Source: an uncultured Lachnospiraceae bacterium
GTDB lineage: Bacteria > Bacillota > Clostridia > Lachnospirales > Lachnospiraceae
Assembly: GCA_900315505.1 (NCBI GenBank)
Contig: OMZG01000006.1
Coordinates: forward strand, 1-64,000
Length of the DNA: 64,000 nt
Direction: 5' to 3'
Below, piece by piece: positions 3,456 through 59,693 of the stretch (position 1 is the first letter of the stretch; every line of letters begins with the position of its first letter). Below the pieces are notes generated by a model. It searched no databases and had not been told where the DNA came from. It saw nothing but the letters and a program-made list of their open reading frames with translations. Both the position numbers and the translations under genes were made by a program.

Positions 3456-3521
3456 CACATATGCAGAAAAATAATAGAATTTACACGAAGTTTATATTTA
3501 TTATTCAGCAAAGGAGTTTAC

Positions 3522-4085
3522 ATGAAGATCAAAGAGATTACTTTTACTGCACTGATGGCAGCGGTATGCTGCATACTCGCACCGATTTCGGTTCCTATCG
3601 GACCGGTTCCGGTATCGCTAGTGGTGCTTGCAGCCCTGCTGTGTGTGTTTGCTATCGGGACCAGGCTTGGCACTGTGGCATTTACCATTTTCCTGCTCTT
3701 AGGAGCTGCAGGAATGCCTGTGTTCTCAGGATGGCAGGGTGGCATCGGGAAGCTTGCCGGACCTACGGGCGGATACCTGATCGGATGCATACCTCTGATC
3801 CTTATCGCAGGAGCATTCATCACCATTTCTGAGAAGAGGAAGGGTGCTCTGAAGTATGTGATCCAGGCCCTTGGTCTGGCTATCGGAGTTCTCGTATGCT
3901 ATGCGCTCGGTACTGCATGGTTCATGATAGAGTCAGGAAGTGATCTCATGACGAGCCTTACTCTCTGCGTGCTTCCGTTCCTGCCATTCGATGCTATCAA
4001 GATCGCTATCGCAATGATCGTCGGCAATCCGCTCAGAGTCGCTCTGTCAAAGGCTGATCTGATGCACTATGGAGCAAAGGCCTGA
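3522..4085 (+). CDS. bioY: Biotin transporter BioY
   Basis: 187-aa polytopic membrane protein. The pattern PISVPIGPVPVSLVVLAALL...GGYLIG is characteristic of BioY. Confidence 0.8.
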   Translation: MKIKEITFTALMAAVCCILAPISVPIGPVPVSLVVLAALLCVFAIGTRLGTVAFTIFLLLGAAGMPVFSGWQGGIGKLAGPTGGYLIGCIPLILIAGAFITISEKRKGALKYVIQALGLAIGVLVCYALGTAWFMIESGSDLMTSLTLCVLPFLPFDAIKIAIAMIVGNPLRVALSKADLMHYGAKA

Positions 4086-14569: not shown

Positions 14570-15166
14570 ATGAACAGAATTATTTTTGCAACAGGAAATA
14601 AAAACAAGGTTCGTGAATGTCATGAGATACTGAAGGACGTGGCTGACGAGATCATTTCGATGAAGGAAGCAGGACTTGATCCTGATATAGATGAGAACGG
14701 GAAGACATTTGAAAAAAATGCGATGATAAAGGCGAAGGCAGTCCATGATCTGGCACCTGACTGCATCGTGATAGCAGATGATTCAGGACTCGTGGTTGAT
14801 GCATTAAATGGTGAGCCTGGAATCTATTCTGCCAGATATCTTGGAGAAGATACCTCATATGATATCAAGAATGCAAAAATACTTGAGCGCATGCAGGGTG
14901 TCCCAAGAGAAAAGCGCACGGCGAGATTCGTCTGTGCAATGGCAGTCATCATGCCTGATGGAGATTCATTTACGAAGACAGGCGTGATGGAGGGCTATAT
15001 AGGAGACCATGCGGAGGGTGAGAACGGATTTGGCTATGATCCTATATTTTTCGTAGAGCCGCAGAACTGCTCAACTGCAGTACTGTCTCCGGATGAAAAG
15101 AATGCTATATCTCACAGGGGACAGGCGATGAGAGCGATGAGGGAAGAGCTGGTTAAGAGGATATAG
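14570..15166 (+). CDS. rdgB: Non-canonical purine NTP pyrophosphatase (RdgB/HAM1)
   Basis: MNRIIFATGNKNKVRE signature. 198 aa. Confidence 0.85.
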   Translation: MNRIIFATGNKNKVRECHEILKDVADEIISMKEAGLDPDIDENGKTFEKNAMIKAKAVHDLAPDCIVIADDSGLVVDALNGEPGIYSARYLGEDTSYDIKNAKILERMQGVPREKRTARFVCAMAVIMPDGDSFTKTGVMEGYIGDHAEGENGFGYDPIFFVEPQNCSTAVLSPDEKNAISHRGQAMRAMREELVKRI

Positions 15167-15234
15167 GATATAGGGGATAGGGGATAGGGGATAGGGGATA
15201 GGCTGTCCCTAACCCCTGACCCCTAATCCCTCAC
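15163..15234 (+). repeat. Tandem-repeat hairpin (GGGGATA)4 with a C-rich partner arm
   Basis: ATAGGATATAGGGGATAGGGGATAGGGGATAGGGGATAGG, loop CTGT, then CCCTAACCCCTGACCCCTAATCCC. Confidence 0.5.
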
Positions 15235-15247
15235 GAAGGAGACCTAT

Positions 15248-15739
15248 ATGAATGATACACTAGTCCTTGTAGTAAGCGATTCACATGGCAGGCAGGAAAA
15301 TCTCGACCGTGCCATCATACAGACGCAGCCGGATATCATCTATCACCTTGGAGATGCACAGGGGTATGAGGATGAGATCAGAGCAGAGTGCGGCGTACCA
15401 TTTTTCTATGTGAGAGGGAACTGCGACTGGGGCAGCGATGCGCCGCTGTATCAGGTGACTTCACTCGGAAAGCACAAGATTTTCCTGACCCATGGACACA
15501 TGTATGATGTGAAGTATTCGGACTATGATCTGATAGAGGCTGCACAGAAGGAAGGCTGCGATGTGGCAATATACGGGCATACGCACATACCAGAGCTTGT
15601 GCAGGCAGACGGAATGACGATCCTCAATCCCGGATCCATTTCCCTTCCACGCCAGCCGGACAGGATACCGACCTTTGCGACGATAGATGTGGACCGGGAC
15701 GGAGAGCTGCATTTTACCATAAATGAGATGAAGCCTTGA
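15248..15739 (+). CDS. YfcE/MJ0936-family metallophosphoesterase
   Basis: VVSDSHG, GDAQG, GNCD and GHTH motifs in the order typical of a calcineurin-like phosphoesterase. Confidence 0.8.
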   Translation: MNDTLVLVVSDSHGRQENLDRAIIQTQPDIIYHLGDAQGYEDEIRAECGVPFFYVRGNCDWGSDAPLYQVTSLGKHKIFLTHGHMYDVKYSDYDLIEAAQKEGCDVAIYGHTHIPELVQADGMTILNPGSISLPRQPDRIPTFATIDVDRDGELHFTINEMKP

Positions 15740-15764
15740 CAAAGAAGCCTTAAGCACATAGAAT
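15736..15764 (+). promoter_or_regulatory. Consensus sigma70 promoter for ileS
   Basis: TTGACA, a 17-nt spacer, then TAGAAT. The -35 box overlaps the yfcE stop codon. Confidence 0.5.
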
Positions 15765-15782
15765 TAACATTCAGGGTTTAAT

Positions 15783-15842
15783 AGTTCGTAGTTCTGAGTT
15801 CTGAGTTAATAGCTAAGAACTATGAACTACGAACTATGAACT
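15783..15842 (+). repeat. Tandem-repeat imperfect hairpin in the ileS leader
   Basis: (AGTTCKTAGTTCTG)n, centre TAATAGCTAA, then (AGAACTATGAACTAC)n. Confidence 0.45.
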
Positions 15843-15867
15843 AAAATAAATGAAAGGATCTGCGTAT

Positions 15868-21556: not shown

Positions 21557-21640
21557 CAGATAAGTCGATGCTCAGCCGACACAGATAGTTGCAAACGCGC
21601 AACTTCTGTGTCGTCTTCACATCTCTTAATTGATAATACT

Positions 21641-23173
21641 ATGAGTAATAATGATTTCAGAGAAGTACCTGATGACGAGATAACAGATGTGTCCGGGGAA
21701 GATAAAAAAGAATCTGACAGCGACTACGAGGACATCTGCTATATGTGCAGACGGCCGGAGCATGTAGCCGGGAAGATGATACATATGCCGGGAGGCATCT
21801 CAATCTGCCATGACTGCATGCAGAAGACGTTTGATACGATGGGAAATTACGCGCCGGGATCATTTTTCCCTGGTGGCGGCTTTACCGGGCTTGATCCGGA
21901 TGATTCGCATTCTACGAACAATTCGAACTACAATGGCATTCCGCTCTTCAACCTGAATGACATAGCAAGCTTCCTTTCGACTACTCCGGGTGTTCCCGAG
22001 AATCAGAAGCTGAAGAAGAAAAAAAAGAAGAAGGATGAAGACGGCGAGGAGAAGGAAGCACCTGCACTCGACATCAAGAACATCCCGCCTCCGCACAAGA
22101 TAAAGGCAAAGCTTGATGAGTACATAGTGGGCCAGGATAAGGCGAAGAAGATCATGTCTGTCGCTGTTTACAATCATTACAAGAGAGTTGTCGAGAGTGA
22201 GAATCTCCTTGATAATGACGACGATGTAGAGATCGAGAAGAGCAATATCCTGATGCTGGGTCCTACCGGCTCAGGAAAGACCTACATGGTAAAGACCCTT
22301 GCGAAGCTTCTCGATGTGCCTCTTGCCATCACTGATGCCACGTCTCTCACAGAGGCCGGCTACATAGGTGACGATATAGAGTCTGTCGTGAGCAAGCTTC
22401 TTGCAGCAGCTGACAATGATGTGGAGAAGGCCGAGAAGGGCATTATTTTCATCGATGAGATAGACAAGCTGGCAAAGAAGAATTCAGCTACGAACCGTGA
22501 TATCAATGGTGAGTCAGTCCAGCAGGGAATGCTGAAGCTCCTTGAGGGAGCAGAGGTCGAGGTTCCTGTCGGAGCATCAAGCAAAAATGCTATGGTTCCA
22601 ATGACTATCGTTGATACAAGCAATATCCTGTTTATCTGCGGCGGTGCTTTCCCCAGACTTACCGATGTGATAAAGGAGAGACTCAAGAAGTCAAGCTCCA
22701 TCGGATTCGTTTCAGATCTAGGTGATGAGTACGACGATGATGAGAATATCCTCGACAAGGTGACATCTGAGGATCTCCGCAAGTTCGGATTCATCCCTGA
22801 GTTCATCGGCCGACTGCCTGTGATCTGCACGCTTCAGCCACTCAGCAAGGAGATGCTGGTAAAGATACTTACAGAGCCAAAGAATGCTATTATCAAGCAG
22901 TACCAGAAGCTCTTATCTCTTGATGAGGTGAAGCTCAATTTCGAGACGGAAGCACTCGACTATATAGCCGAGGAGGCCCAGAAGAGAAAGCTTGGTGCCC
23001 GTGCCCTCCGCTCGATCATCGAGGAATTCATGAATGATATCATGTATGAGATCCCGAAGGATCCGAATATAGGTGAAGTCACTATCACAAAGGACTATAT
23101 AGAGGGCAAGGGTTCGCCGAAGATCACAATGAGATCAAGCGATGTAGTGCCAAAGCTGGCAGTAAACGAATGA
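21641..23173 (+). CDS. clpX: ClpX-type AAA+ unfoldase with Lys/Asp/Glu-rich insert
   Basis: C4 zinc-binding N-domain (CYMC...CHDC), Walker A motif GPTGSGKT, and IIFIDEIDK. A low-complexity KKKKKKKDEDGEEKE insertion is present. The track start at 21608 is GTG. Confidence 0.75.
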   Translation: MSNNDFREVPDDEITDVSGEDKKESDSDYEDICYMCRRPEHVAGKMIHMPGGISICHDCMQKTFDTMGNYAPGSFFPGGGFTGLDPDDSHSTNNSNYNGIPLFNLNDIASFLSTTPGVPENQKLKKKKKKKDEDGEEKEAPALDIKNIPPPHKIKAKLDEYIVGQDKAKKIMSVAVYNHYKRVVESENLLDNDDDVEIEKSNILMLGPTGSGKTYMVKTLAKLLDVPLAITDATSLTEAGYIGDDIESVVSKLLAAADNDVEKAEKGIIFIDEIDKLAKKNSATNRDINGESVQQGMLKLLEGAEVEVPVGASSKNAMVPMTIVDTSNILFICGGAFPRLTDVIKERLKKSSSIGFVSDLGDEYDDDENILDKVTSEDLRKFGFIPEFIGRLPVICTLQPLSKEMLVKILTEPKNAIIKQYQKLLSLDEVKLNFETEALDYIAEEAQKRKLGARALRSIIEEFMNDIMYEIPKDPNIGEVTITKDYIEGKGSPKITMRSSDVVPKLAVNE

Positions 23174-26246: not shown

Positions 26247-27066
26247 TAGCGGAGTCCTGACGGACTGGCTTAAGAAATTCTTATCCGGCTCTCTGGACTT
26301 TTTCTGGAGCGTGGTGATCGCCCTGATCGTCTGGTTCGTTGGGGCGAAGGTCATCAGGTTCATTCGAAAGGTGGTACGTACCGCCCTTGAGAAAAGAGAT
26401 GTCGATAAGGGGGTAGCGCAGTTCACCGACGGAGTGCTGAATGTCGCCTGTTATGTGGTGCTCATCCTTATTATCTTAAATCTGTTCGGGATTCAGACCT
26501 CATCAGTCGCAGCCGCTGTGGCATCTCTCGGACTGACCGCCGGACTTGCACTGCAGGGTTCTCTGTCGAACTTCGCAGGCGGAGTACTCATACTCGTGCT
26601 GAAGCCGTTTAAGGTCGGTGATTATATCATCGAGGACACGCACAAGAACGAAGGAACGGTTGCAGAGATATCGATATTCTACACCCGCCTCCGCACGATT
26701 GATAATAAGATAGTCGTGATCCCGAACGGGACTCTCGCGAATTCATCTCTTACCAATGTGACGACATCCGATCGCAGGCAGATCGATCTGACATTCGGGA
26801 TCAGCTATGAGGATGATCTGAAGAAGGCAAAGGAGATCCTCTATCATATCGCGCAGACTACAGAGAAGCGGGTAAAGGATACAGACATCCAGGTCTTCGT
26901 GAGAGAGCTCGCAGAGTCATCGGTCAATCTCGGATTCAGGATCTGGGTACCGATGGACGACTACTGGAGCGTACTCTGGGAGATAAACGAACGGGTGAAG
27001 CTGACCTTCGATAAGGAAGGCATCACGATACCGTATAATCAGCTGGATGTGACACTTAAAAGTTGA
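26230..27066 (+). CDS. MscS-family mechanosensitive channel
   Basis: The PFKVGDYI...IPNGTLANSSLTNVT MscS core and three N-terminal TM segments. Confidence 0.85.
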   Translation: MYLAINSGVLTDWLKKFLSGSLDFFWSVVIALIVWFVGAKVIRFIRKVVRTALEKRDVDKGVAQFTDGVLNVACYVVLILIILNLFGIQTSSVAAAVASLGLTAGLALQGSLSNFAGGVLILVLKPFKVGDYIIEDTHKNEGTVAEISIFYTRLRTIDNKIVVIPNGTLANSSLTNVTTSDRRQIDLTFGISYEDDLKKAKEILYHIAQTTEKRVKDTDIQVFVRELAESSVNLGFRIWVPMDDYWSVLWEINERVKLTFDKEGITIPYNQLDVTLKS

Positions 27067-27168
27067 GAGTTGAGAGTTAAGAGTTAAGAGTTTAACGTTA
27101 GAATTTTGTTATAACTCATAACTTTAAACTCTTAACTTTAAACTCATAACTTTAAACTTACAGAGAAA
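27066..27168 (+). repeat. Tandem-repeat strand-asymmetric hairpin
   Basis: (GAGTTRA)n arm, then (AACTY/TTTAAACTC)n arm. 27086-27095 pairs perfectly with 27123-27132. Confidence 0.45.
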
Positions 27169-32723: not shown

Positions 32724-34121
32724 ATGGAAAAAAGTCTTGACACAATCGTCCAGCTTGCAAAGAACCGCGGATTCGTATATCCGGGCTCAGAGATCTACGG
32801 AGGCCTTGCAAATACCTGGGATTACGGTAATCTCGGTGTAGAGCTGAAGAACAATGTAAAGAAGGCCTGGTGGCAGAAGTTCGTTCAGGAGAGCCCGTAC
32901 AATGTAGGTGTTGACTGCGCTATCCTCATGAATCCACAGACCTGGGTAGCATCAGGACATCTCGGTGGCTTCTCAGATCCTCTGATGGACTGTAAAGAGT
33001 GCCACGAGAGATTCAGAGCAGACAAGCTGATCGAAGATTTTGCTCAGGAGAACGGCATAGAGCTCGAGAGCTCTGTAGACGGCTGGACAAATGAGCAGAT
33101 GGAGAACTGGATCGAAGAGCACAATGTACCATGCCCATCATGCGGCAAGCACAATTTCACACCGATCAGACAGTTCAACCTGATGTTCAAGACCTTCCAG
33201 GGAGTCACAGAGGATGCAAAGAATACTGTATATCTGCGTCCTGAGACAGCCCAGGGTATATTTGTCAATTTCAAAAATGTAGCCCGTACTTCAAGAAAGA
33301 AGATTCCGTTCGGAATAGGTCAGATCGGTAAGTCATTCAGAAACGAGATCACACCTGGTAACTTCACCTTCCGTACAAGAGAGTTCGAGCAGATGGAGCT
33401 TGAGTTCTTCTGTGAGCCGGGAACAGACCTTGAGTGGTTCCATTACTGGAGAAAGTTCTGCCATGACTGGCTTCTTTCTCTCGGGATACAGGATTCGCAC
33501 TTACGTCTCAGAGACCATGATCCTGCAGAGCTTGCATTCTATTCAAAGGGTACAACCGATATCGAGTACACCTTCCCGTTTGGCTGGGGTGAGCTCTGGG
33601 GAATCGCAGATCGTACAGACTATGACCTTGGCCGTCATCAGGAAGTATCAGGACAGGATCTCACATATTTCGACGATGCAAAGAACGAAAAGTATCTGCC
33701 ATATGTCATCGAGCCATCACTCGGTGCAGACCGTGTGGTACTTGCATTCCTCTGCGAGGCATATGATGAGGAAAATATCGGAACTGAGGAGAAGCCTGAC
33801 ATGCGTACAGTGCTTCATTTCCATCCGGCACTTGCACCAGTAAAGGTCGGTGTTCTTCCACTTTCCAAGAAGCTGGCTGAACCGACACAGAAGCTCTGGG
33901 CACAGCTGTCAAAGAAGTACAACTGCGAGTATGATGACAGAGGAAATATCGGAAAGAGATACCGCCGTCAGGACGAGATCGGAACTCCATACTGCGTGAC
34001 CTACGATTTCGATTCAGAGGAGGATCACAAGGTGACAGTCCGTGACCGTGATACTATGGAGCAGGAGCGAATCGCCATCGACGAGCTGGATGCGTATTTT
34101 GAGGATAAGTTCACTTTCTAA
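32724..34121 (+). CDS. glyQS: Glycine--tRNA ligase (alpha2 homodimeric type)
   Basis: Class II aaRS with the characteristic N-terminus [17 protein letters not shown]. 465 aa. Confidence 0.9.
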
Positions 34122-34247
34122 GTTTATAATTTAAAGTCAGAAGTTAGAAGTTAGAAGTTTATAGTTAGAAGTTAGAAGTTTATAGTTAGAAGTTTAAAGT
34201 TAAAAGTTATCATACTCATAACTCATAACTCATAACTCATAACTCCC
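34122..34247 (+). repeat. Tandem-repeat strand-asymmetric element
   Basis: (AGAAGTTAGAAGTTTATAGTT)n, then (ATAACTC)4. Confidence 0.45.
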
Positions 34248-34265
34248 GACTTATCAGGAGACAAA

Positions 34266-40066: not shown

Positions 40067-40139
40067 TGAGGCACGCGGGATTTGAACCCGCGACAACTTG
40101 ATTAAAAGTCAAGTGCTCTACCAACTGAGCTAGTACCCC
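40067..40139 (-). tRNA. tRNA-Lys(UUU)
   Basis: Cloverleaf can be drawn. Anticodon loop CTTTTAA, T-loop TTCAAAT. Confidence 0.85.
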
Positions 40140-40162
40140 GCGATAGATACATAACCCCGTAA

Positions 40163-40234
40163 CTGGGCCAGCCGGATTCGAACCGGCGAATGCAGGAATC
40201 AAAATCCTGTGCCTTACCGCTTGGCGATAGCCCA
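40163..40234 (-). tRNA. tRNA-Gln(UUG)
   Basis: TGGGCTATCGCCAAGCGGTAAGGC... with anticodon loop TTTTGAT. Confidence 0.85.
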
Positions 40235-40269
40235 ACGAATCCAACTGATATATAGAAATGATAGTAAAG

Positions 40270-40344
40270 GGTGGATAAAGGGATTCGAACCCTTGGCCTC
40301 CAGAGCCACAATCTGGCGCGCTAACCAGCTGCGCTATACCCACC
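40270..40344 (-). tRNA. tRNA-His(GUG) with encoded G-1
   Basis: Anticodon loop TTGTGGC. An extra 5' G pairs with discriminator C. Confidence 0.85.
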
Positions 40345-40424
40345 ACGTCGCTGCGAACTCCGCTGCGTCTCCTTTTCCCTACGAGGGCACCCTCGTGGGA
40401 ACCCCAGGACCTGCTGCCTGGTAA

Positions 40425-40498
<74 letters not shown>

Positions 40499-40524
40499 AC
40501 ATAAATGCATGTAAACATTTAAAA

Positions 40525-40595
40525 AGCAGGTGATGAGAATCGAACTCACGTATCCAGCTTGGAAGGCTGGTGTTCTACCATTGAACTACACCTGC
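40525..40595 (-). tRNA. tRNA-Gly(UCC)
   Basis: GCAGGTGTAGTTCAATGGTAGAAC..., anticodon loop CTTCCAA. Confidence 0.85.
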
Positions 40596-40600
40596 GTAAA

Positions 40601-40674
40601 TCGAGGTGACAGGATTCGAACCTGCGACCCCCTGGTCCCAAACCAGGTGCTCTAGCCAAACTGAGCCACACCTC
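40601..40674 (-). tRNA. tRNA-Pro(UGG)
   Basis: Anticodon loop TTTGGGA, acceptor stem CGAGGTG/CACCTCG. Confidence 0.85.
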
Positions 40675-40709
40675 GATATGTAATTCGTTTCTTCCGAAAC
40701 GCAAGTAAC

Positions 40710-42677: not shown

Positions 42678-42726
42678 ATGCTTGACTATCATCTCATGAA
42701 AAGTTAACATATTACGCAGAGTGTAC

Positions 42727-42786
42727 GAGAGCGCACGAAGGGGCACACCACCTTGGGTGTGAGTCCTTTCGTGCGCTCTTTTTTAC
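42727..42786 (+). terminator. Intrinsic terminator of eno
   Basis: GAGAGCGCACGAAGG...CCTTTCGTGCGCTCT followed by T6. Confidence 0.6.
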
Positions 42787-42789
42787 GCG

Positions 42790-42935
42790 TAATAAATGAG
42801 CGGTGCTGAAATGGAATATCGGTGCCGGCGGACGCTTGCGTACGCATAGGCGGCCGATATTCCATTTCAATAGCGCGAACGCGCGAATGAGCACGAAGCG
42901 AAGCGGAGTGCGAATCGCACCGCTCATACACTAAA
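42790..42935. repeat. Long inverted-repeat element, copy A
   Basis: ATGAGCGGTGC...GCACCGCTCAT encloses GAAATGGAATATCGG...CCGATATTCCATTTC. Shares GCCGCCTATGCGT (as reverse complement) with copy B. Confidence 0.4.
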
Positions 42936-42999
42936 AGGAGATGACCAATGCAGGAAGAGTATCGAAGAGATTCTGAAGGAAAGAGGACTTACAAAAGAG

Positions 43000-43197: not shown

Positions 43198-43962
43198 ATG
43201 TCTGACACATTTAAACTGGGAGAAAAAGAATTTACGTCAAGATTCATTCTTGGCTCCGGAAAATATTCGGTTGACCTGATAAAGGCGGCCGTGAATGAGG
43301 CTCATGCACAGATCATTACGCTGAGCGTACGCAGGACAAATACACAGAAGCATGAGAATATCCTCGAGTATATTCCTGACAATGTGACTCTTCTTCCGAA
43401 CACCTCTGGTGCAAGGAATGCTGGGGAGGCTGTCAGGATCGCACATCTGGCCAGAGAGCTCGGATGCGGTGATTTTGTAAAAATCGAGATCATGGGAGAT
43501 ACGAAGTATCTGCTCCCTGACAATAATGAGACTATTAAGGCTACAGAGATCCTTGCAAAAGAAGGATTCACTGTACTTCCATATATGTATCCTGATCTGT
43601 ATGCAGCCAGAGCACTCCGCGATGCCGGTGCTGCAGCCGTTATGCCGCTTGCATCACCGATTGGCTCGAACAGAGGTCTTTCTACGAAGGAATTCATCCA
43701 GATCCTTATCGATGAGATTGATCTTCCGGTCATTGTAGATGCCGGAATCGGCAAGCCGTCAGAGGCTGCTGCCGCAATGGAGATGGGTGCTGCTGCCGTA
43801 ATGAGCAACACCGCCATCGCCACCTCAGAGAACATTCCTCTGATGGCAAGTGCTTTTGCAGAGGCAATAAGCGCTGGCCGTAAGGCATTCCTCGCCGGTA
43901 CCGGACGTGTGCTCGAGCGTGGTGCAGAGTCGAGTGATCCGTTGCTTGGATTTTTAAGGTAA
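43198..43962 (+). CDS. thiG: Thiazole synthase
   Basis: [12 protein letters not shown] start, then ...IMGD..LLPD and ...[19 protein letters not shown] precedes the ATG at 43198. Confidence 0.9.
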
Positions 43963-44050
43963 TAGGATATAGGATATAGGATATAGGATATAGGATATAG
44001 GGGATAGGAATTGATAAACCCTAACCCCTAACCCCTACCCCCTAACCCCT
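43963..44050 (+). repeat. Tandem-repeat hairpin (TAGGATA)5..GGGGATAGG with a (CCCTAAC)n telomere-like arm
   Basis: Same repeat family as 15163-15234. The C-rich arm is CCCTAACCCCTAACCCCTACCCCCTAACCCC. Confidence 0.5.
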
Positions 44051-50753: not shown

Positions 50754-53699
50754 TCAATAATAATGCCTCAGCTTAAGTCGCCGTCCTTTACAGAATGGGC
50801 AAGGCTCTCTATGACGTTTCTGGAACATGATTCGTTTGGCAGGAGACATTGGATAATGATGCCCTTGAGAACACTCCCACCAAACTTTTTTATTATAATT
50901 CTCATTTATCTGATCAGGGTCAGCCAGCAAGGAATTGTTCAGATACAACCATTCATCCATAAGATCAGGATGTTTGATCTTAAATGAATTAAATCCCGGA
51001 AGCACCTGTCTGCCGGTGCAGTAAGGACAGTCAGCTTCGCCCGAAACCATGTCTTTGATAGAAGCACTATAGCTACCATGACAGGTAGGACATATCCATT
51101 GAACGTATCTTGGTGAGCTGGAAAGCACATCATCAGTGGATATATCGTTCTCATCAGACCACAAGGAAGCGATTTCAGGATATTTGACTTTAAGGCTGTT
51201 AAATCCCGGAAGTACCTTTCTGTCATTGCAGTAAGGACAGTCAGCTTCGCCCGAAACCATGTCTTTGATAGAAGCACCATAAGTACCATGACAGGTAGGA
51301 CAAACCCATTTAACGTACTTTGCGGAGTCAGGAAAAACATCATCAGCAGATATGTCATTTTCATCAGACCACCAAGAAGCGATATCAGGGTACCTGACTT
51401 TAAGACTGTTGAATCCGGGTAGCACCTGTCTGTCATTACAGTAAGGACATTCAGCCTTGCCAGAGACAATATCCTGAATAGTACTGCTATATTTACCGCC
51501 ACAATCGGGACAGATCCAATAAAATCTGGATGCAGCATTGTAAGATATCTTATCTGGTTCTTTATCATTATCGGGATACCACATTGAAAGATACTGAGGA
51601 TAAACATCAGCAAAACTTTCTCCGGGTTTTACCCTGATGAGGGCACAGTATGGGCAACCCGTACGACCTTTTTTTAGTGCTATTATGATGCGGGCAGTCG
51701 AGGTCTTGTATCTTTTTTTACAAGTAGGGCAGATCCATGTCATAGGTATATATGAATCGTCGTAAGTACGTATTGAAAAAATGGTTCTGCCACTGGCCTG
51801 TTCATCACACATATCAACTAGCTGGGGATACTCCTCCGCGTACGGTATATCACGACTATGACCACTGCTGCACTTTTGACAGTCTATAAAGATAAGATCA
51901 TTTTTGTCTTTACCATAACGAAAACGACTTGCTATTGTTCCCCGCCATCTGTTACCACATTTTTTACACTTATAATTTACAATCTTTGCAGAATGAACAC
52001 CCTCGGAATAGATGTCAATATCAGGATTGTTATCAAAATCGAATAATGATGAAAATTCGGGTTTTACTGTAAGGACGTCATTTACTCCTTTTACTATTAC
52101 ATTGCCGACTTCACAGCATGGACAGTTCCTTGAAATAAGACGACTCTTAGCCGTTGCCTCCCATTCACGTCCGCAAACAGGACATTTCCAGAAAAAAGTT
52201 TCTCTGCTTCCGGCTTGTATAACACGTGGATCAATTCCGGCATTTTTTTCAAAATCCCAGAATCTGAGTAAATCTGGTATGTCGTATACTGATGCGATAC
52301 TATTATTCTTTTTCTGTTTTACAGTTGAACCTTTATTTATTCCGCAGTTGGGACATCCTGCAAATGATTTCTTTGTTTTGCCTCCGGTCATGCCAAAAAA
52401 CGTACTTTGCCACGCATATCCGCAGTGGGGACATTTCCAGTCGAACAGTGGAATCTTGGAGTTATAAGAAACTGAGTATGGATCCAGGCCGGTATTCTTA
52501 TCAAAATCATAATATTTTTTTGCCTGTGGGAATATGGTGAAAATATCATTGACACCTTTTTTTACGGAATAGTCTCTTTTTTCACCGCAATGAGGGCATC
52601 GGTCTGATGCATCAAGACGCACTGCTACACTTGTTTCCCATTCGTATCCACAGTCGGGACATTTCCAGTATACCCTTTTGCTAGAATTGGATGGGGTTTT
52701 TGCCGGATCCATTGTATTATGTTCTTTATCCCAGAATTTCATGAGCTTTGGCACTTCAGAAACCTTTTCCTTGTCTTCCGGCTTTATCTTTGAGGTATCC
52801 TTATGCTGACAGGGCATAAAGCGATATGTTCCGTCTTTTTTCTTATCAACACGTCTGCTCATTGCTTTACGGAATTTGCGACCGCACACGGGGCATTTCC
52901 AATTAACGACAGTTTTGGAGCCAACACCGATTTTCTTTATATCTATCCCTTCCGAAGCATTAGCGTCAAAGTCCCACTCGTTAAGTGCATCTGGCAGTAT
53001 GGTAGATATGTCATTGTATCCTGGTGATACACCATGTCCCTGATCACAGCATGGGCATTCTGCCTTTGCCTTGTATCTGCTATATACTGGTGCAGTCCAT
53101 TTAAAATGACATCTTTTACATTTCCAATGAACCGAAGGACGTTTCATCATGACAGATGTTGTATTGATATCTATCCCTTTATTTTCGTCGAAATCCCAGA
53201 AATCGACAAGTTTTTCTACTTCTGATATCATAGGGATATCTTGTCTTTTATGAGTACAGGAAACGAACAGATATGTTCCGTCCTTTTGCTTACGAATTCT
53301 ATTTCCAATCGCCATCCGAAACTCACGATGACAGACAGGACACTTCCAGTATGCCATCTTCTTGGAGCCTACGCCTTCATTCTCCAGGTGGATGTCTTCA
53401 ACGTCATTCTTTTCTTTGTCCCATTCATCCATAATGCCAGGTACAAGCGTAACTGCATCATTATGTCCTGACCATATGACTTTTTTCTGTTCGCAGCGGG
53501 GACACTCACCCTTTGAGATATAACGGTTATAAACCGACGCTTTCCACTCATACCCACATCTCTTACATTTCCAGGAGAGGAGTGGTTTCTGTGCAAGGGC
53601 TGATGTCATATTTATATCGATTCCTTTATTTTTCTCAAAGTTCCAGAATTTTGTAATCTTTGGAACCGATGATGCCGGAATGAATTCTTTCACTTTCAT
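50754..53699 (-). CDS. 981-aa protein of about 13 tandem four-Cys zinc-ribbon modules (DUF4379-like)
   Basis: Each module reads W(K/I)CxxC(G/H)..W...(11-14 aa)..CPxC, then a linker V.xGxND..T..P....EWD...N. The C-terminal three modules are almost identical at the DNA level. Confidence 0.7.
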   Translation of the reverse strand: MKVKEFIPASSVPKITKFWNFEKNKGIDINMTSALAQKPLLSWKCKRCGYEWKASVYNRYISKGECPRCEQKKVIWSGHNDAVTLVPGIMDEWDKEKNDVEDIHLENEGVGSKKMAYWKCPVCHREFRMAIGNRIRKQKDGTYLFVSCTHKRQDIPMISEVEKLVDFWDFDENKGIDINTTSVMMKRPSVHWKCKRCHFKWTAPVYSRYKAKAECPCCDQGHGVSPGYNDISTILPDALNEWDFDANASEGIDIKKIGVGSKTVVNWKCPVCGRKFRKAMSRRVDKKKDGTYRFMPCQHKDTSKIKPEDKEKVSEVPKLMKFWDKEHNTMDPAKTPSNSSKRVYWKCPDCGYEWETSVAVRLDASDRCPHCGEKRDYSVKKGVNDIFTIFPQAKKYYDFDKNTGLDPYSVSYNSKIPLFDWKCPHCGYAWQSTFFGMTGGKTKKSFAGCPNCGINKGSTVKQKKNNSIASVYDIPDLLRFWDFEKNAGIDPRVIQAGSRETFFWKCPVCGREWEATAKSRLISRNCPCCEVGNVIVKGVNDVLTVKPEFSSLFDFDNNPDIDIYSEGVHSAKIVNYKCKKCGNRWRGTIASRFRYGKDKNDLIFIDCQKCSSGHSRDIPYAEEYPQLVDMCDEQASGRTIFSIRTYDDSYIPMTWICPTCKKRYKTSTARIIIALKKGRTGCPYCALIRVKPGESFADVYPQYLSMWYPDNDKEPDKISYNAASRFYWICPDCGGKYSSTIQDIVSGKAECPYCNDRQVLPGFNSLKVRYPDIASWWSDENDISADDVFPDSAKYVKWVCPTCHGTYGASIKDMVSGEADCPYCNDRKVLPGFNSLKVKYPEIASLWSDENDISTDDVLSSSPRYVQWICPTCHGSYSASIKDMVSGEADCPYCTGRQVLPGFNSFKIKHPDLMDEWLYLNNSLLADPDQINENYNKKVWWECSQGHHYPMSPAKRIMFQKRHREPCPFCKGRRLKLRHYY

Positions 53700-53708
53700 A
53701 TATTACCC

Positions 53709-54464
53709 TCACTCGAATTTATCGAACAATCCCTTTACTACGTTGCTTTCGATTCCTGAAGAATCGTTTGCTGTTTCATCTTCCGTCTGAGAAGTGTCTG
53801 TACTATCATCAGACGTATCTATATCAGTATCAGGTCTTATGGCCCTGGCTTCGGCTTTTTCTGCATCAATATGTGTGGACACCGTACCTTTGAGCTCACC
53901 GTCTTCCTTTAACAGCTCATTAGCCATCTCTGGATATACATTATCTTCTATGAACTTTTTCATGTACTTATTCTTTTTACGGAGTTCGGTCAACTCTGTC
54001 TTTTGTTCTACATATTTCTGCCTGAGCTCAACGTTATCCTTTTTTATCTTATCCAGCTCGGAACTCATTTTATCGTGCTCTTCAACGAGTCTGCGGTTTT
54101 CCTGCTTTATCGTAATAGCTGACTCAGAAATATTTCTGTAATGGGTATCCAGTTCCGTCAGCGATCTTCTCATTGCATCACGGGACTGGTTGTTGTCGAT
54201 AAAGGCATCCACATCGAGCGTGGTATATGTTGTGATGTTTACCGATGCTTTTTCAATATTCCCCTTCAAAGAGGAGATATAACTCCTTGCGGCCGTATTT
54301 CTGCGAAGGGTTGTAACGGAATATCCTGTGAATCCGTTATCACTTACATACTGGGCAATCTGCGGAAACCTCAGCAGAGAGCCGTTTCCATGACACACGT
54401 CGTTATAATATTTTTTTATAAGATCAAGAAGGACGTCATCCTCGATCTGCTTTTTCCTTGCCAT
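53709..54464 (-). CDS. Coiled-coil protein with acidic Ser/Thr/Asp-rich tail
   Basis: 251 aa. Central heptad region ELDKIKKDNVELRQKYVEQKTELTELRKK. 9 nt upstream of the zinc-ribbon gene. Confidence 0.5.
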   Translation of the reverse strand: MARKKQIEDDVLLDLIKKYYNDVCHGNGSLLRFPQIAQYVSDNGFTGYSVTTLRRNTAARSYISSLKGNIEKASVNITTYTTLDVDAFIDNNQSRDAMRRSLTELDTHYRNISESAITIKQENRRLVEEHDKMSSELDKIKKDNVELRQKYVEQKTELTELRKKNKYMKKFIEDNVYPEMANELLKEDGELKGTVSTHIDAEKAEARAIRPDTDIDTSDDSTDTSQTEDETANDSSGIESNVVKGLFDKFE

Positions 54465-54502
54465 ATACCGCTCCTTTCATGACTCTCATAAGTCCCTGTC
54501 TC

Positions 54503-56179
54503 TTAACTTTCCTGTGTCTTTTTCCTGTCATACATTTTTTTCTGCATGAGATAATTTCTGTAAGACGTGGAACTTTCCTGGACTTTTAACATTGCTTCTC
54601 CTATGTCTTCAACAGCACCTTTGTCGTGCCTTACTCTGTCTACGGCTTCTACAAGAGCCGTACAGTCGTCTTTAAGATCTCTTCTGTATATATCATCACC
54701 CTCGAAGAAGGAGATTGACGGTCCTCTGTAGAACCGGCATGAAAGGCAGTAACCGATTTCACCGTTCTCGCCACATGCTTTACGGCAATCCGTTATACTG
54801 CCGCTCATATATGCACTGGAATAGCATGTGCCACCATCTGCAAGTGAAACGTGCTTTTCAGCGGGAGGAAGAAGACCCTGTACAGAGATCTGATACTTTT
54901 TATCGCTGCCTATGTATTTCCTGTATTCCCTGTATGTCTGACATTCTATCATGGTTTCAAGGTTACTGTAATAATGGGCTGCCATTTCTTCATTGGTATG
55001 CCCTGCAAGGAACATTGCCGTGGCCGGAGTGCCGCCTTCCTGCATGAGATTGATAAGTGCGACATGCCTTGCATCTCCGAGACGTATCCTCTGTATCTCC
55101 TTATCTTCCAGATGTCTTGTCTCCTCGTCTGAAATGATGCGGTATCCGTATATTCCACAAATAACCTCTGAATAAAAATATCTGAGTATCGTGACCATGT
55201 TCACATATGTGAGAAAACGGCTGTTGCTGTGTTTGCCCTGCTTCCATTTTCTGTAGTGCGGATCAGTGACAAAAAGCGTATCTATATCAGTGCTGTCATA
55301 TTTATCCGTTGCTTTCAGATATCCGTTGATCTCTTCATAAAGTTTGTCCGGTATACGAAAAGTAGTAGTAAAATAATCCGCGCTGATCTTATAGGACTTT
55401 TCACGCTTGCTGCCTTTAAGCCTGTTCCTGCGAAGCGTTATATAATGCTTTCCCTTCGCATCAGTTGAGAGACAGTCCCTTGTTGTGAGAAGGAATTCCC
55501 TCGGTCGTAGAGGTATACATCCTGTCAGGTTCCACCAGATATAAAGGGGCAGGTAGAACAGTCTGTCCTCGGTATTGAGATCATGACTCCAGTAATCGTT
55601 TATGATGTCATTAAATACAGCGTATGTATCGAAAGCTGCAAGAGATCGTGAACGCGGGCCTTTTTGCTTTGCAATCCTGGTCTCCGAACAGATATCGAGC
55701 ATATCCATAATGTCATTTGTAAAATCACCTGATGTATCAGGAAGCATGGAGAAAAAGTCTGAACACTGGGCAGGTCGTGTGAGTGTATAGCCTGCCTCTT
55801 CTGTGCCTATAGCCACCGGATCGTTGGCTGTTATATGCCTGAGATCGAGTATAACATTTTCCATTGATACAAGGGCTGTCTTACTGAAGAGCGTTGTAAT
55901 ATATGATTTAACCCTTGAAACGAATTCATCGAAGGACAGATTCAGTCCCTTGGCATAGTATTCATCATACTTTTCTCTGTCAAACGAGAAATGAAGTCCG
56001 ACATTTGAATACTCATCTGTTGTGTACCATACATCATCCTCAAATGATGAGCCTTCTTTTATGACACCGGCATCCCTGAACGCGTCAAAACGCTCCCTGG
56101 CAGCCGATACTGAAGTCTGATCAAGAAGTATGAAGTTAAGTGATGAGGAGAAAAGCTCCTCTGCCGTGGAAACATTCAT
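54503..56179 (-). CDS. Tyrosine recombinase, third of trio, with C-terminal Cys-rich extension
   Basis: Catalytic residues in order: LRPREF (R), ARHVALINLM (RH), AGHTNEEMAAHYY (H..Y). Extra Cys-rich segment CxxxxC...CxxC after the catalytic domain. Confidence 0.65.
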   Translation of the reverse strand: MNVSTAEELFSSSLNFILLDQTSVSAARERFDAFRDAGVIKEGSSFEDDVWYTTDEYSNVGLHFSFDREKYDEYYAKGLNLSFDEFVSRVKSYITTLFSKTALVSMENVILDLRHITANDPVAIGTEEAGYTLTRPAQCSDFFSMLPDTSGDFTNDIMDMLDICSETRIAKQKGPRSRSLAAFDTYAVFNDIINDYWSHDLNTEDRLFYLPLYIWWNLTGCIPLRPREFLLTTRDCLSTDAKGKHYITLRRNRLKGSKREKSYKISADYFTTTFRIPDKLYEEINGYLKATDKYDSTDIDTLFVTDPHYRKWKQGKHSNSRFLTYVNMVTILRYFYSEVICGIYGYRIISDEETRHLEDKEIQRIRLGDARHVALINLMQEGGTPATAMFLAGHTNEEMAAHYYSNLETMIECQTYREYRKYIGSDKKYQISVQGLLPPAEKHVSLADGGTCYSSAYMSGSITDCRKACGENGEIGYCLSCRFYRGPSISFFEGDDIYRRDLKDDCTALVEAVDRVRHDKGAVEDIGEAMLKVQESSTSYRNYLMQKKMYDRKKTQES

Positions 56180-58089
56180 GCGACCGCCTCCTTCAGATAA
56201 TTTTCGTACTGTTCATATGTCTTTTCACCATACTGATCCTTTATGCAGGTGAGCATCTCATCCAGTTTCGGGAGAAGTATTTCCTTTGCAATGCTACCGT
56301 ATTTCTGTTTTTCAAGCGGTGATGTGGCAGCATTATACAGCTTCTGTATGCGCTTTATTTCTGATATGACGAGAAGAAACGTCGATTTTGTGCTTATTTC
56401 ATACGGACACCCCACGCACTGCCTGCTGTCAGTGTACGGACAGATCTTTCCTATTGCTGATTTAAGGCATAGTGATTCTGCCTCTTTCGAGAAGGCCTGT
56501 CCTGAGCCTATGCGGTGCAGAGCTGTAAGTATATCGGTGTCGGAACCTGAGGCCTCTCTGACGGCCAGCACGGCTCTCTGGCGGCCTTCTTCTACAAGAG
56601 AGACGACCTCATCTGTTTCTTTCGGGGAAAGATTCAGAAGATGGTGGGCCTCCGTCTGCTCTTCAACGCTTAATGTTTTATAATCTTTCCCCTCGATCAT
56701 TTCAAGGAGCATCGACGAGACAAATGAACATACACCTCTTTCCAACAGCTCATAGGCAACGAAGTCGGGTGTAAGACCATCGAATTTTGCATCTTTCAGA
56801 TATTCCATTGTCGTATTTGCAAACTCTCCGAAACTTCCTTTGTGTGAACGGGCGAGAGAAGCAAATATATATCCTTTCACGCTTGCGGCATTGGCATCAA
56901 CGTCCCCGTCTTCCCGCAGTATCTCATCAGCGTGCATATATATGGACTGAAGATATGATTTTGTGGCGGATCTGGATCTGAAATCAGATTCAAGAAACAG
57001 GTTTCCGATATCCTCTCCCATGTATCTGGTTATCTGTTCATATGTCGAGATCTTTCTTATAATAGGAGCGTCAGGGTTGCCATCAATCTGTCTGTGGGCT
57101 TCTGCAAGGGCAAATAATATCCCGAAATGTGTCTCACATGAGTGCGGCACTGTAAATTTTACATATTCGTCATGTCCCCGTCCTGATGTCTTGTTTACCG
57201 TAAGAGGTAAAAGGCATAGCCTCTGTGTGATGGAACGCAGAACACTCTGTGCGTCGTCGTCCGTAAACTCTCCGTTGCGTACTTTCCGCAATACTTCATC
57301 CGGTGGATATGGAAGATCGGGATGATATATCCGTTCAAGATCGGTCAGCCGCAGGGAGCAGATGAAGTTGATCGACAGATAAAGCCATGTATCCGTATAG
57401 TCTGTTGAATCAGCAGCTTTTGCATACATGTCGTTTTCTTCGATATAGTCCTCATTCAGCAGATAGTAGAGCAGTTCCAGATATTCATCCATTTCATAGG
57501 CTTCGTTCTGGATATCCATAGTGTATCGGTTTCCCATGACATAATCACGATTGTAATTTGTCTTCGTTCTCTGCCTGAGCCAGGAGATAAAGAAAGTGAG
57601 ATCATCTCCGAATGCCTTTGTGAGTTCATCCGCTGCTGCTTTCACAATGCTTTCCATATCAGTATCTGTATAGAACATCATCTCCCTGTCAAGATGGTAC
57701 AGGAGAAAATCGGTGATATACATTACCGATTCATCAGGAAGCTCTACGGCCTTTGCAAATTCTTCAAGATAGCGGGCAGTAGAGGGAAAACGTACAGACA
57801 GATCTCCTGAAAGAGTATCTTCGCTGAAATCCGATGATAAAAATGATGACAGATTATCCTTCAGCAGTTCTGCATCATCTTCGGATAAGGTAAAACCGCC
57901 ATCTGCATTACCGTCTTTTACCGGCTTTATCCCAAACCATCCGTTGCTTTCAAGAAAGAGCACGGTATCGTCCATTGATTTGTTATATGGATTGCTGCCG
58001 TTTAATGCCTCCGTTACGATCTTATTAAGGCTTTCCATCACCATGCCCCCTTTCGGCTGCCCACATATGATAGTCGAACAGCTCATCAT
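56176..58089 (-). CDS. Putative divergent tyrosine recombinase (Tn554 TnpB-like size), second of trio
   Basis: 637 aa. Overlaps neighbours by 4 nt and 65 nt. Candidate box-I SLRLTDLE and ARSHKGS..EY. The assignment is weak. Confidence 0.4.
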   Translation of the reverse strand: MMSCSTIICGQPKGGMVMESLNKIVTEALNGSNPYNKSMDDTVLFLESNGWFGIKPVKDGNADGGFTLSEDDAELLKDNLSSFLSSDFSEDTLSGDLSVRFPSTARYLEEFAKAVELPDESVMYITDFLLYHLDREMMFYTDTDMESIVKAAADELTKAFGDDLTFFISWLRQRTKTNYNRDYVMGNRYTMDIQNEAYEMDEYLELLYYLLNEDYIEENDMYAKAADSTDYTDTWLYLSINFICSLRLTDLERIYHPDLPYPPDEVLRKVRNGEFTDDDAQSVLRSITQRLCLLPLTVNKTSGRGHDEYVKFTVPHSCETHFGILFALAEAHRQIDGNPDAPIIRKISTYEQITRYMGEDIGNLFLESDFRSRSATKSYLQSIYMHADEILREDGDVDANAASVKGYIFASLARSHKGSFGEFANTTMEYLKDAKFDGLTPDFVAYELLERGVCSFVSSMLLEMIEGKDYKTLSVEEQTEAHHLLNLSPKETDEVVSLVEEGRQRAVLAVREASGSDTDILTALHRIGSGQAFSKEAESLCLKSAIGKICPYTDSRQCVGCPYEISTKSTFLLVISEIKRIQKLYNAATSPLEKQKYGSIAKEILLPKLDEMLTCIKDQYGEKTYEQYENYLKEAVA

Positions 58090-59512: not shown

Positions 59513-59557
59513 AAGCATCAGTTACCGCCAAGTAAAGCTGGTGCTTTTTTGTTGCTT
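59513..59557 (+). terminator. Possible stem-loop terminator
   Basis: AGCATCAG..CTGGTGCT followed by T6. Confidence 0.3.
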
Positions 59558-59693
59558 GTATCTCACATTATACATCTTACTTCTGAAGTTTTCAAGGTCA
59601 TTCGACAATAATATTATCTCATTTTTATCTATTGTTATTGTTTTTTATATAATATATGCTATAATGTATAGACATAGGAGGAATACCACGCTT

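Follow-up and report, generated by a model that had tools for sequence, protein, structure and literature searches.

The window, as we call the whole stretch of DNA analysed here, comprises 64,000 nucleotides (nt) from an uncultured Lachnospiraceae bacterium (GenBank assembly GCA_900315505.1, contig OMZG01000006.1, positions 1 to 64,000 of the forward strand). Between its rdgB-like and yfcE-like genes lies a short element, E1, which an earlier reading of the sequence (hereafter the original prediction) had described as a G-quadruplex-type repeat facing a C-rich arm. We find that E1 consists of two convergent heptanucleotide simple-sequence-repeat arrays, that the window contains five pairs of this kind (E1 to E5), and that the arrays lengthen and shorten by whole 7-nt units. 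The family is abundant in the Lachnospiraceae lineage to which the window belongs and absent from most relatives. The original prediction missed that the elements belong to a published class, the heptameric simple-sequence repeats. With regard to their role, our preferred reading, in which we place about as much confidence as doubt, is that E1-type elements arise by slippage, are transcribed with their neighbors and form imperfect stem-loops, which loop out the spacer between the cistrons and affect the messenger RNA (mRNA) modestly at most.

The rdgB-like open reading frame (ORF; Ham1p_like) occupies positions 14570–15166, and its stop codon, the TAG at 15164–15166, is located inside the E1 array. 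Past this stop the plus strand reads GATATAGGGGATAGGGGATAGGGGATAGGGGATAGG, CTGT, CCCTAACCCCTGACCCCTAATCCC, just as the original prediction had quoted it. The complete element spans 15158–15231 and is composed of (AGGATAT)2(AGGGGAT)4 AGG, the tetranucleotide CTGT and then (CCCTRAY)3.5. Tandem Repeats Finder reports two arrays at this site, both of period 7: ATAGGGG in 4.7 copies with a 100% match (15170–15202) and CCCTAAC in 3.6 copies (15207–15231). The yfcE-like phosphoesterase ORF that follows (Metallophos_2) has its ribosome-binding site, AAGGAG, at 15236–15241 and its ATG at 15248, and the rdgB–yfcE spacer consists essentially entirely of the two E1 arrays. The C-rich arm had been called largely complementary to the first arm; the complementarity is there, but it is partial, with 4-base-pair (bp) G:C blocks that have internal loops between them. 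Because the same sequence recurs in independent gut-metagenome assemblies, E1 is not an assembly artefact. Independent metagenome assemblies (L086, L087 and L089) also end inside or directly beside E1, and the arrays fragment assemblies of this species.

Elements of the same architecture were found by Tandem Repeats Finder at four further places in the window (Table 1). All five are intergenic and each is located between co-directional genes on the plus strand, which bears out the earlier description of a five-member family in short spacers between genes of one direction. We also scanned the whole window for self-matches at lags 2–15, counting as a region any stretch in which 18 or more of 21 positions matched. 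Seven regions, which make up five loci, came from lag 7 and its multiple 14, while lags 2–6, 8–13 and 15 gave none or one; exact-match runs of at least 10 were confined to lag 7. Period 7 is the only tandem period enriched in the window. In every element the partner array contains the complement of the core of the first arm (GGGG/CCCC, AGTTC/GAACT or AGTTA/TAACT), and the remaining two to three positions of the unit differ systematically between the arms, as in GGGGATA versus the complement GGGGTTA. The property common to the five elements is a 7-nt period combined with an inverted partner array. E3 and E2 are the longest inverted repeats of the window. The earlier characterization of one arm as purine and the other as pyrimidine is loosely true of the family, but the arms of E2 are mixed.

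The arrays are positioned close to the upstream stop codon: in E1 and E3 the array contains it, and in E4 and E5 it precedes the array by at most 12 nt. In E3 this is the TGA of the MscS-like gene at 27064–27066, with the ATG of the downstream M16 peptidase gene at 27176. E4 is flanked by a glycyl-transfer RNA (tRNA) synthetase gene (stop 34119–34121) and a DUF218 gene (ATG 34266), and E5 by the thiG stop codon, TAA at 43960–43962, and the thiH ATG at 44071. At the opposite end, the 3′ arms finish 4–15 nt ahead of a canonical ribosome-binding site, and the downstream ribosome-binding site is never covered. The array itself supplies the upstream stop codon in E1, in E3 and in the E5 of two other genomes. 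In strain L122 (9900–9960) the thiG stop has changed from TAA to TTA and the ORF ends at a TAG inside the E5 array; in L184, which has the E5 orthologue at thiG–thiH in a species 80.6% identical in nucleotide sequence, the thiG stop is a TAG within the array. The arrays of L122 and L184 act as a backstop of stop codons. We also considered stop codons in every frame as a selected feature of the units. Stops are indeed present in the units, but we rejected the idea: C-arm variants include TGG and TAT, and AT-rich heptamers often hold stops, which points to a constraint rather than a function.

Table 1. Paired period-7 arrays of the window and the promoter-like site ahead of E2 (window positions).
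Feature	Position	Strand	Composition	Context
E1, 5′ arm	15158–15202	+	(AGGATAT)x2 (AGGGGAT)x4 AGG	Holds the rdgB TAG and the G-quadruplex motif at 15173–15197
E1, loop	15203–15206	+	CTGT	
E1, 3′ arm	15207–15231	+	CCCTAAC CCCTGAC CCCTAAT CCCT	Ends 4 nt short of the yfcE ribosome-binding site
Promoter-like site	15736–15764	+	TTGACA-17-TAGAAT, 11/12 matches	Ends ~10 nt ahead of the E2 hairpin
E2	15775–15844	+	AGTTCNN-type arm 15778–15808 (AGTTCTG); GAACTNN-type arm 15810–15840 (GAACTAT)	Between yfcE and ileS, in the ileS leader
E3	27056–27159	+	TTRAGAG-type arm 27056–27103; WWAACTY-type arm 27109–27159	Between the MscS-like and M16 peptidase genes
E4	34132–34251	+	AAGTTAG-type arm, ~11 units, 34134–34209, directly abutting CATAACT-type arm x5, 34210–34251	
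E5	43962–44050	+	(ATAGGAT)x6, ATAGGGG, ATAGGAA, loop AATTGATAAA, (CCCTAAC)x5	Between thiG and thiH

Contigs of the same species, retrieved from gut metagenomes by exact-protein look-ups, revealed how the arrays vary between strains. E1 is found as alleles of 92 and 71 nt. The shorter allele, present in L082 and also on the truncated contig of L089, is missing an AGGATAT, an AGGGGAT and a CCCTGAC unit and so retains three G-tracts. For E4 the alleles measure 147, 126, 44 and 37 nt. E5 has alleles of 120, 110, 103 and 96 nt, represented by five allele sequences of which two are distinct at 103 nt; these differ in unit number in both arms and carry three different loops. Across 20 related elements and alleles, the unit numbers of the two arms are weakly correlated (Spearman 0.34, p = 0.14). 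E2 is invariant in nine strains save for one single-nucleotide polymorphism (SNP), in L089, at an unpaired position of the predicted fold.

Comparison with the isoleucyl-tRNA synthetase gene neighborhoods of 80 species-representative genomes placed the window in an uncultured Lachnospiraceae lineage; a metagenome-assembled genome was the best match, with 94% amino-acid identity, the remaining matches reaching at most 76%. In these 1.56 Mb from 80 other Lachnospiraceae there was no period-7 array, against 122 expected at the density of the window. The closest relative, L001, shares 65–85% nucleotide identity; its rdgB and yfcE genes overlap (ATGA), and its ileS leader of about 60 nt has the promoter and no repeat. 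Because L001 has neither E1 nor E2, both are recent gains.

A 19-mer across the AGGATAT/AGGGGAT junction led to 59 metagenome loci covering 363 kb. These contain 64 arrays of period 7 and at most three of any other period between 4 and 12. About 20 of the loci, of gut-type G+C content (GC; 0.42–0.49), share one plan: a stop codon, (ATAGGAT)n(ATAGGGG)m, a loop, (CCCTRRY)k, a ribosome-binding site and an ATG. Their downstream genes, judged by eye from the first codons, resemble tpiA, lepA, dnaJ and an ATPase subunit, and AGTT-type paired arrays are also found on these metagenome contigs. Once related loci were deduplicated, the GGGGATA-type arm was located on the coding strand directly after a same-strand ORF at 36 of 43 loci (36 vs 7, p = 9e-6), usually 0–20 nt from the stop codon, and the C arm finished ahead of the ribosome-binding site and ATG.

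Some of these loci have a loop in common. An identical 21-nt loop, ATCAGGTAACAGATTGTTGTT, is found in the E5 of four strains (L123, L125, L127 and L129) and at two other loci, both in L190 (1690 and 2695); the copies share their proximal arms too, about 36 nt together. Likewise, the loop TATAGT is common to L152 and L188 at non-orthologous loci. These shared loops suggest ectopic gene conversion or a mobile origin, and because they are identical at non-orthologous loci, it is likely that the elements trade sequence or have a common ancestry and did not each arise independently. One form that a mobile origin could take is a dispersed element akin to a miniature inverted-repeat transposable element (MITE) or a repetitive extragenic palindromic (REP) sequence, with heptamer arms and a transposase acting in trans. 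This proposal is about origin and is compatible with the other explanations discussed here. It would account for the 36 nt shared between thiG–thiH of several strains and L190, for the recurring TATAGT, for related loop motifs seen by eye in other elements (TTGATAA..., GATCAGGT...), and for the presence and absence alleles of E4 together with the clean empty sites of L001. However, a comparison of filled and empty alleles of E4 found no target-site duplication, and the termini of the elements are not conserved. E1 and E5 have arm units in common but differ in their loops, as do E3 and E4; alleles differ through whole units gained or lost rather than through insertion of a fixed element; and the window encodes no transposase. 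Ectopic gene conversion between homologous arms could explain the shared loops equally well. We consider a mobile element of this kind unlikely.

The same units extend to viruses. Exact copies of GGGGATA, AGTTAGA and CTCATAA are present in 7, 15 and 22 viral contigs, respectively, of 27–66% GC, where some of the arrays are paired and some are extremely dense; a search of viral contigs for the loop ATCAGGTAACAGATTGTTGTT gave no matches. Some viral contigs, whose GC contents are unrelated, are packed with heptamer arrays (L111, with 12 in 13.7 kb; L095, with 9 in 6.7 kb; L102 and L103). The units in these contigs are CAGTTAT, GAAGTYA, GTGAATA, CCACTRM and GGGGAYA. Many of the viral arrays stand directly ahead of start codons, and some form inverted pairs around terminator-like hairpins.

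A bolder proposal, which we regard as doubtful, is that the arrays, rather than being separate products of slippage, form one actively homogenised dispersed family, created or kept up by a mechanism specific for 7-nt units that is shared with cyanobacteria, Beggiatoaceae, Xanthomonas and many phages. The mechanism could involve a templated or nicking enzyme, a mobile element lacking classical ends, or the regulon of an RNA-binding protein with an oligonucleotide/oligosaccharide-binding (OB) fold. If true, this would explain the recurrence of the cores GGGGAYN and AGTTA/TAACT in different phyla, the occurrence of identical loops at non-orthologous loci and the fact that whole lineages have either hundreds of arrays or none.

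The original prediction had put emphasis on the capacity to form a G-quadruplex (G4) or i-motif. Its textbook G4 motif does exist in the window allele of E1. Canonical four-tract G4 motifs are found in the window only at 15173–15197 on the plus strand and at 15207–15230 and 44025–44049 on the minus strand, whereas shuffled sequences give 0.9 with G3 tracts and 0.01 with G4 tracts. The motif at 44025–44049 belongs to E5, which has one on the minus strand only, where its C arm reads GGGGTTA. When G-quadruplex energies were included in ViennaRNA, the window allele of E1 gave a G4-containing fold of −40.8 kcal/mol versus −38.9 kcal/mol for the hairpin, so the two predicted folds could compete. A switch, in which folding of the four G4 tracts, as DNA or RNA, controls how the flanking genes are transcribed or translated, would fit the rarity of the E1 motif by chance and this predicted competition. 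It would also fit the behavior of similar heptamers in Xanthomonas and Nostoc, which form G4 in vitro and prefer four units (PMC4692102).

The motif is not kept across the family, however. Three of the five members, E2, E3 and E4 (AGTTCTG, TTAAGAG and AAGTTAG types), are without G-runs. The three-tract allele of E1 (L082, L089) is predicted to fold as a hairpin only, and the alleles of E5 have between one and three tracts of G3 or longer. Of the 20 related elements and alleles, 4 have a canonical G4 motif on the sense strand and 9 on the antisense strand, and 8 lack it on both. In addition, the neighboring complementary C arm would compete with G4 folding. The G4 prediction holds for the window allele of E1, with its motif and competitive predicted fold, but not for the family, and G4 or i-motif capacity is not supported as the property that defines it. 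Because G-tracts are not kept across loci and alleles, we treat the G4 of E1 as a likely by-product of the GGGGATA unit, not as a conserved feature, and regard a G4 or i-motif switch as very unlikely.

We next consider the hairpin itself, with RNA folds scored against dinucleotide shuffles. The sense-strand folding energies of E1 to E5 are −38.9, −34.3, −37.8, −24.3 and −24.4 kcal/mol, with z-scores of −3.3, −10.8, −6.0, −2.7 and +0.8. The hairpin suggested by the original prediction therefore withstands the fold check in four of five elements, which are better than shuffles, and fails it in E5. The predicted structure is a long imperfect hairpin with helices of 4–5 bp that are broken every 7 nt. 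E2 is the most stable of the five relative to its shuffles. The antisense strand folds about as well as the sense strand. In a search of the window with Rfam, only tRNAs reached the gathering score; the elements match no RNA family and no T-box, and the sub-threshold matches on E1, E2 and E5 (by E-value thresholds) are of a generic microRNA-like hairpin kind.

A hairpin that follows a stop codon could also be an intrinsic terminator or attenuator, here between rdgB and yfcE, and E1 does place a GC-rich stem straight after the stop. A terminator scan of the five elements, however, detected no T-run and no terminator-like site at any of them, while in the window's genuine terminators a T-run follows a compact GC stem. 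Moreover, a ribosome-binding site follows within 4–15 nt downstream. Termination at E1 is hardly credible on this evidence, in agreement with the earlier statement that the elements are not standard terminators.

E2 differs from the others in lying in a leader with a candidate promoter. Promoter-like matches within E3 and E4 are at background level, and only the site ahead of E2, which is sigma-70-like, is strong. The ileS leader of the sister species L001 has a similar TTGACA-17-TAAAAT at 3514–3542, as read by eye. [quoted passage not shown] Rfam detected no T-box leader ahead of ileS in the window, where the leader is occupied by E2. Absence of a T-box ahead of ileS is unusual for Firmicutes.

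In the reading that we prefer, gains and losses of units would result from replication slippage, and the sequence shared with sister elements from exchange or common origin. The element would be transcribed together with its neighbors, which is probable because it has no terminator features and is placed within strings of same-strand genes. Within the mRNA the arms would zip into an imperfect stem-loop of 4–5 bp helices with an interruption every 7 nt, and since both arms are periodic they can pair in any register. Folding of this kind would loop out the inserted 70–130 nt and thereby keep the upstream stop codon, often supplied by the array, beside the free ribosome-binding site of the next gene. 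Any effects in cis would be modest: the stem-loop may act as an exonuclease barrier or as a site for a double-strand RNase, setting the relative stability of the two cistrons, and unit number could serve to tune such effects. Operons would tolerate a structure of this kind. E2 occupies the place expected of a 5′-terminal stabiliser hairpin on the ileS mRNA.

Several observations weigh against this reading. The sense RNA of E5 folds no better than shuffles, and E4 folds better on the antisense strand. Although the sense strand is the more stable in 14 of the 20 elements, the difference is not significant (Wilcoxon p = 0.31), and for that reason the acting strand or level (RNA, DNA or no selection) cannot be assigned. 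Two-unit duplications of period 7 show no excess in the window outside the five loci, so a general bias toward 7-nt slippage is not demonstrated. The neighboring genes are unrelated housekeeping genes with no visible regulon logic. The short alleles of E4 (44 and 37 nt, in L122 and L123) keep two to three units of the 5′ type and no partner arm, and the element is dispensable, given this reduction of E4 and the absence of E1 and E2 from L001. Finally, we infer co-transcription, folding in the cell and effects on expression from the DNA sequence.

The main competitor to the preferred reading is that the elements are neutral or selfish by-products: slippage-prone junk that expands where it is harmless (away from coding sequence and from the ribosome-binding site), with no function at any level, its hairpin being a harmless shape or a relic of inverted duplication. 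Consistent with this, alleles with and without the element coexist in one species (E4, 37/44 vs 147 nt), loops are freely variable, and the element is absent in L001 and in the 80 other Lachnospiraceae. The lack of a sense/antisense folding asymmetry, the shuffle-like sense fold of E5 and the functionally unrelated neighboring genes point in the same direction, and published studies likewise found no function (PMC4692102). Neutrality sits less easily with the retention of E5 at the orthologous thiG–thiH spacer across species about 80% identical, or with the invariance of E2 across nine strains, where the lone SNP is in a predicted internal loop. The loss of units from both arms of E1 also keeps its arms balanced, and the orientation bias toward the coding strand is strong (36 vs 7). 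This rival remains strong, and we judge it possible but somewhat unlikely.

Alternatively, each 7-nt unit could be the footprint of a single-strand binder, such as a cold-shock protein, ribosomal protein S1 or a CsrA-like protein, that covers the spacer and controls translation of the downstream gene. A footprint would explain why the period is constant at 7 even though unit sequences differ and why arrays end just upstream of the ribosome-binding site. The recurrence of the cores GGGGAYN and AGTTA/TAACT in unrelated bacteria and in viral contigs of 27–66% GC would fit as well, and binding has been proposed for TAACTGA repeats (PMC4679880). Yet units vary widely between loci of one genome, which disfavors a sequence-specific binder; complementary pairs would be double-stranded; unit number is unconstrained; and the window shows no candidate gene with a link to the elements. 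We consider a binding-site array quite unlikely. A sponge for CsrA-type proteins that bind GGA was rejected, as E2–E4 are without GGA. Overall, the protein-binding, mobile-element, G4 and terminator readings are less likely than either co-transcribed stem-loops or neutral by-products.

Other features of the window were noted in the course of the analysis. Between the glycogen-phosphorylase and AAA/ClpB-like genes there is a 73-nt insertion (21574–21646) with the inverted repeat GACACAGATAGTTGC...GCAACTTCTGTGTC; the window and L081 have it, whereas it is missing in L082, where the spacer is 12 nt. Not being heptamer-periodic, it may represent a second kind of small intergenic hairpin insertion. 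The leader of thiS-thiG-thiH (42678–42964) has no thiamine pyrophosphate (TPP) riboswitch by Rfam even at an E-value of 1. It contains strong hairpins at 42728–42779 and 42800–42876 and a sub-threshold match to the Clostridiales-1 RNA at 42797–42926, with 26 bits versus a gathering score of 48. A strain-variable island covers 50754–59389 (minus strand) and 59541–62777 and is absent from L122, L123, L125–L127 and L129. It encodes a 981-amino-acid protein with 13 DUF4379 treble-clef zinc-finger repeats, which account for a 210-bp tandem repeat at 50989–51455, as well as four ORFs without a Pfam match. Located beside the gene for a type I restriction R subunit, it is likely a defence island. A cluster of six tRNA genes lies at 40067–40675 on the minus strand.

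The value of this lineage is that it shows the phenomenon cleanly, with paired arrays filling operon spacers from the stop codon to the ribosome-binding site. Public metagenomes already contain a natural allelic series (37 to 147 nt at one locus), which makes the question of heptamer-repeat function testable in a gut commensal. In practical terms, the elements break assemblies, shift stop codons and mimic G4 or regulatory RNA motifs. Even if neutral, they mark a lineage-specific mutational process.

Heptamers are the most abundant long repeat unit in bacteria, and polymerase slippage has been suggested as their source, according to the accounts of Mrazek (2007) given in PMC4692102 and PMC4679880. 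The elements described here have the features of long heptanucleotide simple-sequence repeats: head-to-tail copies of 7 nt, intergenic location, sporadic distribution and polymorphism in unit number. Our literature search returned no report of heptamer repeats in Clostridia or Lachnospiraceae.

Among the closest counterparts are the repeats of Rehm et al. (2015), GGGAATC in Xanthomonas and GGGGA(C/T)T in Nostoc, which lie between aligned ORFs, less than 50 bp from the stop or overlapping it on the coding strand (PMC4692102). Xanthomonas genomes each have 70–75 convergent inverted pairs, and the repeats there are mostly transcribed (PMC4692102). The resemblance to E1 is extensive. The unit is again 7 nt with a run of three to four G, and GGGGATA equals GGGGATT at 6 of 7 positions. 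Four units are frequent, the arrays lie between aligned ORFs near or over the stop, convergent pairs occur as in Xanthomonas, the neighbors are housekeeping genes, and length and sequence vary extensively between close relatives. A unit with a G-run of at least three is found in E1 (GGGGATA) and in the C arm of E5 (GGGGTTA, minus strand) but not in E2–E4. Placement agrees, with the rdgB TAG inside the array and 36 of 43 related loci following a same-strand ORF. As to the preference for four tracts, the picture is mixed: the window allele of E1 has four and the L082/L089 allele three, and the 20 elements and alleles appear to show no such preference (sense motif in 4/20, antisense in 9/20). Further differences from the repeats of Rehm et al. 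are the Firmicute host (Lachnospiraceae) of 47% GC, the presence of G-free AGTT-type arrays in the same genome, and the regular pairing with a C arm in this lineage, by which operon spacers are filled as far as the ribosome-binding site.

The 3′ arms resemble a second known group, the TAACTGA repeats of marine Beggiatoaceae, cyanobacteria and Bacteroidetes, found just upstream of start codons, for which binding of S1, Csp or CsrA has been proposed (MacGregor, 2015; PMC4679880). Like these, they are intergenic, in forward orientation, immediately ahead of start codons and sporadic in phylogenetic spread (PMC4679880), and stop codons in all frames limit overlap with coding sequence. The arms are in forward orientation and end 4–15 nt ahead of the ribosome-binding site. 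The 3′ arms of E3 and E4 (TAACTCA and TAACTTT) equal TAACTGA at 5–6 of 7 positions. The exact TAACTGA unit is absent from the five elements, in which TAACTCA, TAACTTT, GAACTAT and AAGTTAG match it at 5–6 of 7. Unlike the BOGUAY repeats, nearly all of which are direct (one set is indirect) and which extend over the expected ribosome-binding site, the arrays here are paired and leave a canonical ribosome-binding site free.

A precedent for hairpin function is the 5′ untranslated region of Haemophilus influenzae hmw1A, where an (ATCTTTC)n repeat forms a long hairpin that RNase III cuts and the number of units sets the scale of expression (Rapun-Araiz et al., 2025; PMC12721329). In both systems a heptameric repeat of strain-variable unit number pairs with a partly complementary arm to give a long imperfect hairpin (here a predicted one) upstream of a gene. 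The hmw1A case, however, concerns one locus and a phase-variable adhesin, and its right arm is not a heptamer array, whereas the elements described here are at many loci, beside housekeeping genes, and are known from sequence alone.

Heptanucleotide repeats of cyanobacteria are known as short tandemly repeated repetitive (STRR) sequences. They share with the present family several different heptamer units per genome, intergenic location and many copies. They come from another phylum, and inverted pairing does not define STRR sequences. The heptanucleotides of Calothrix PCC 7601 are cited in PMC4692102. Geobacter metallireducens has GGGACCG x4 at 49 sites and MTYCTGA x5 at 15 sites (PMC2700814); these are likewise short heptamer arrays at dozens of sites, proposed to be regulatory, but their copy number is fixed, they lie within genes as well, and they have not been described as pairs forming hairpins.

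A more general likeness is to REP sequences and bacterial interspersed mosaic elements (BIMEs) and to MITEs (Correia, BOX and RUP), which are also dispersed intergenic repeats that form hairpins. Such dispersed repeats are often found between co-transcribed genes, and REPs can stabilise upstream mRNA. Unlike them, the elements have no conserved consensus beyond the repeat units, and neither terminal inverted repeats nor target-site duplication was seen; REPs and MITEs in turn are without 7-nt periodicity. Copies share arm units, not termini, and E4 shows no duplication, yet some loops are shared between loci. Within the window there is no gene for a RAYT transposase, which accompanies the 20–40 nt imperfect palindromes of REPs. 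As the original prediction stated, the elements appear not to be REP elements.

Taken together, nothing in E1–E5 is outside what Xanthomonas and cyanobacteria already show. Heptamer simple-sequence repeats with the same location rules are known from Xanthomonas, Nostoc, Beggiatoaceae and Geobacter, and what is new is their occurrence in Lachnospiraceae, which adds a new phylum to this distribution.

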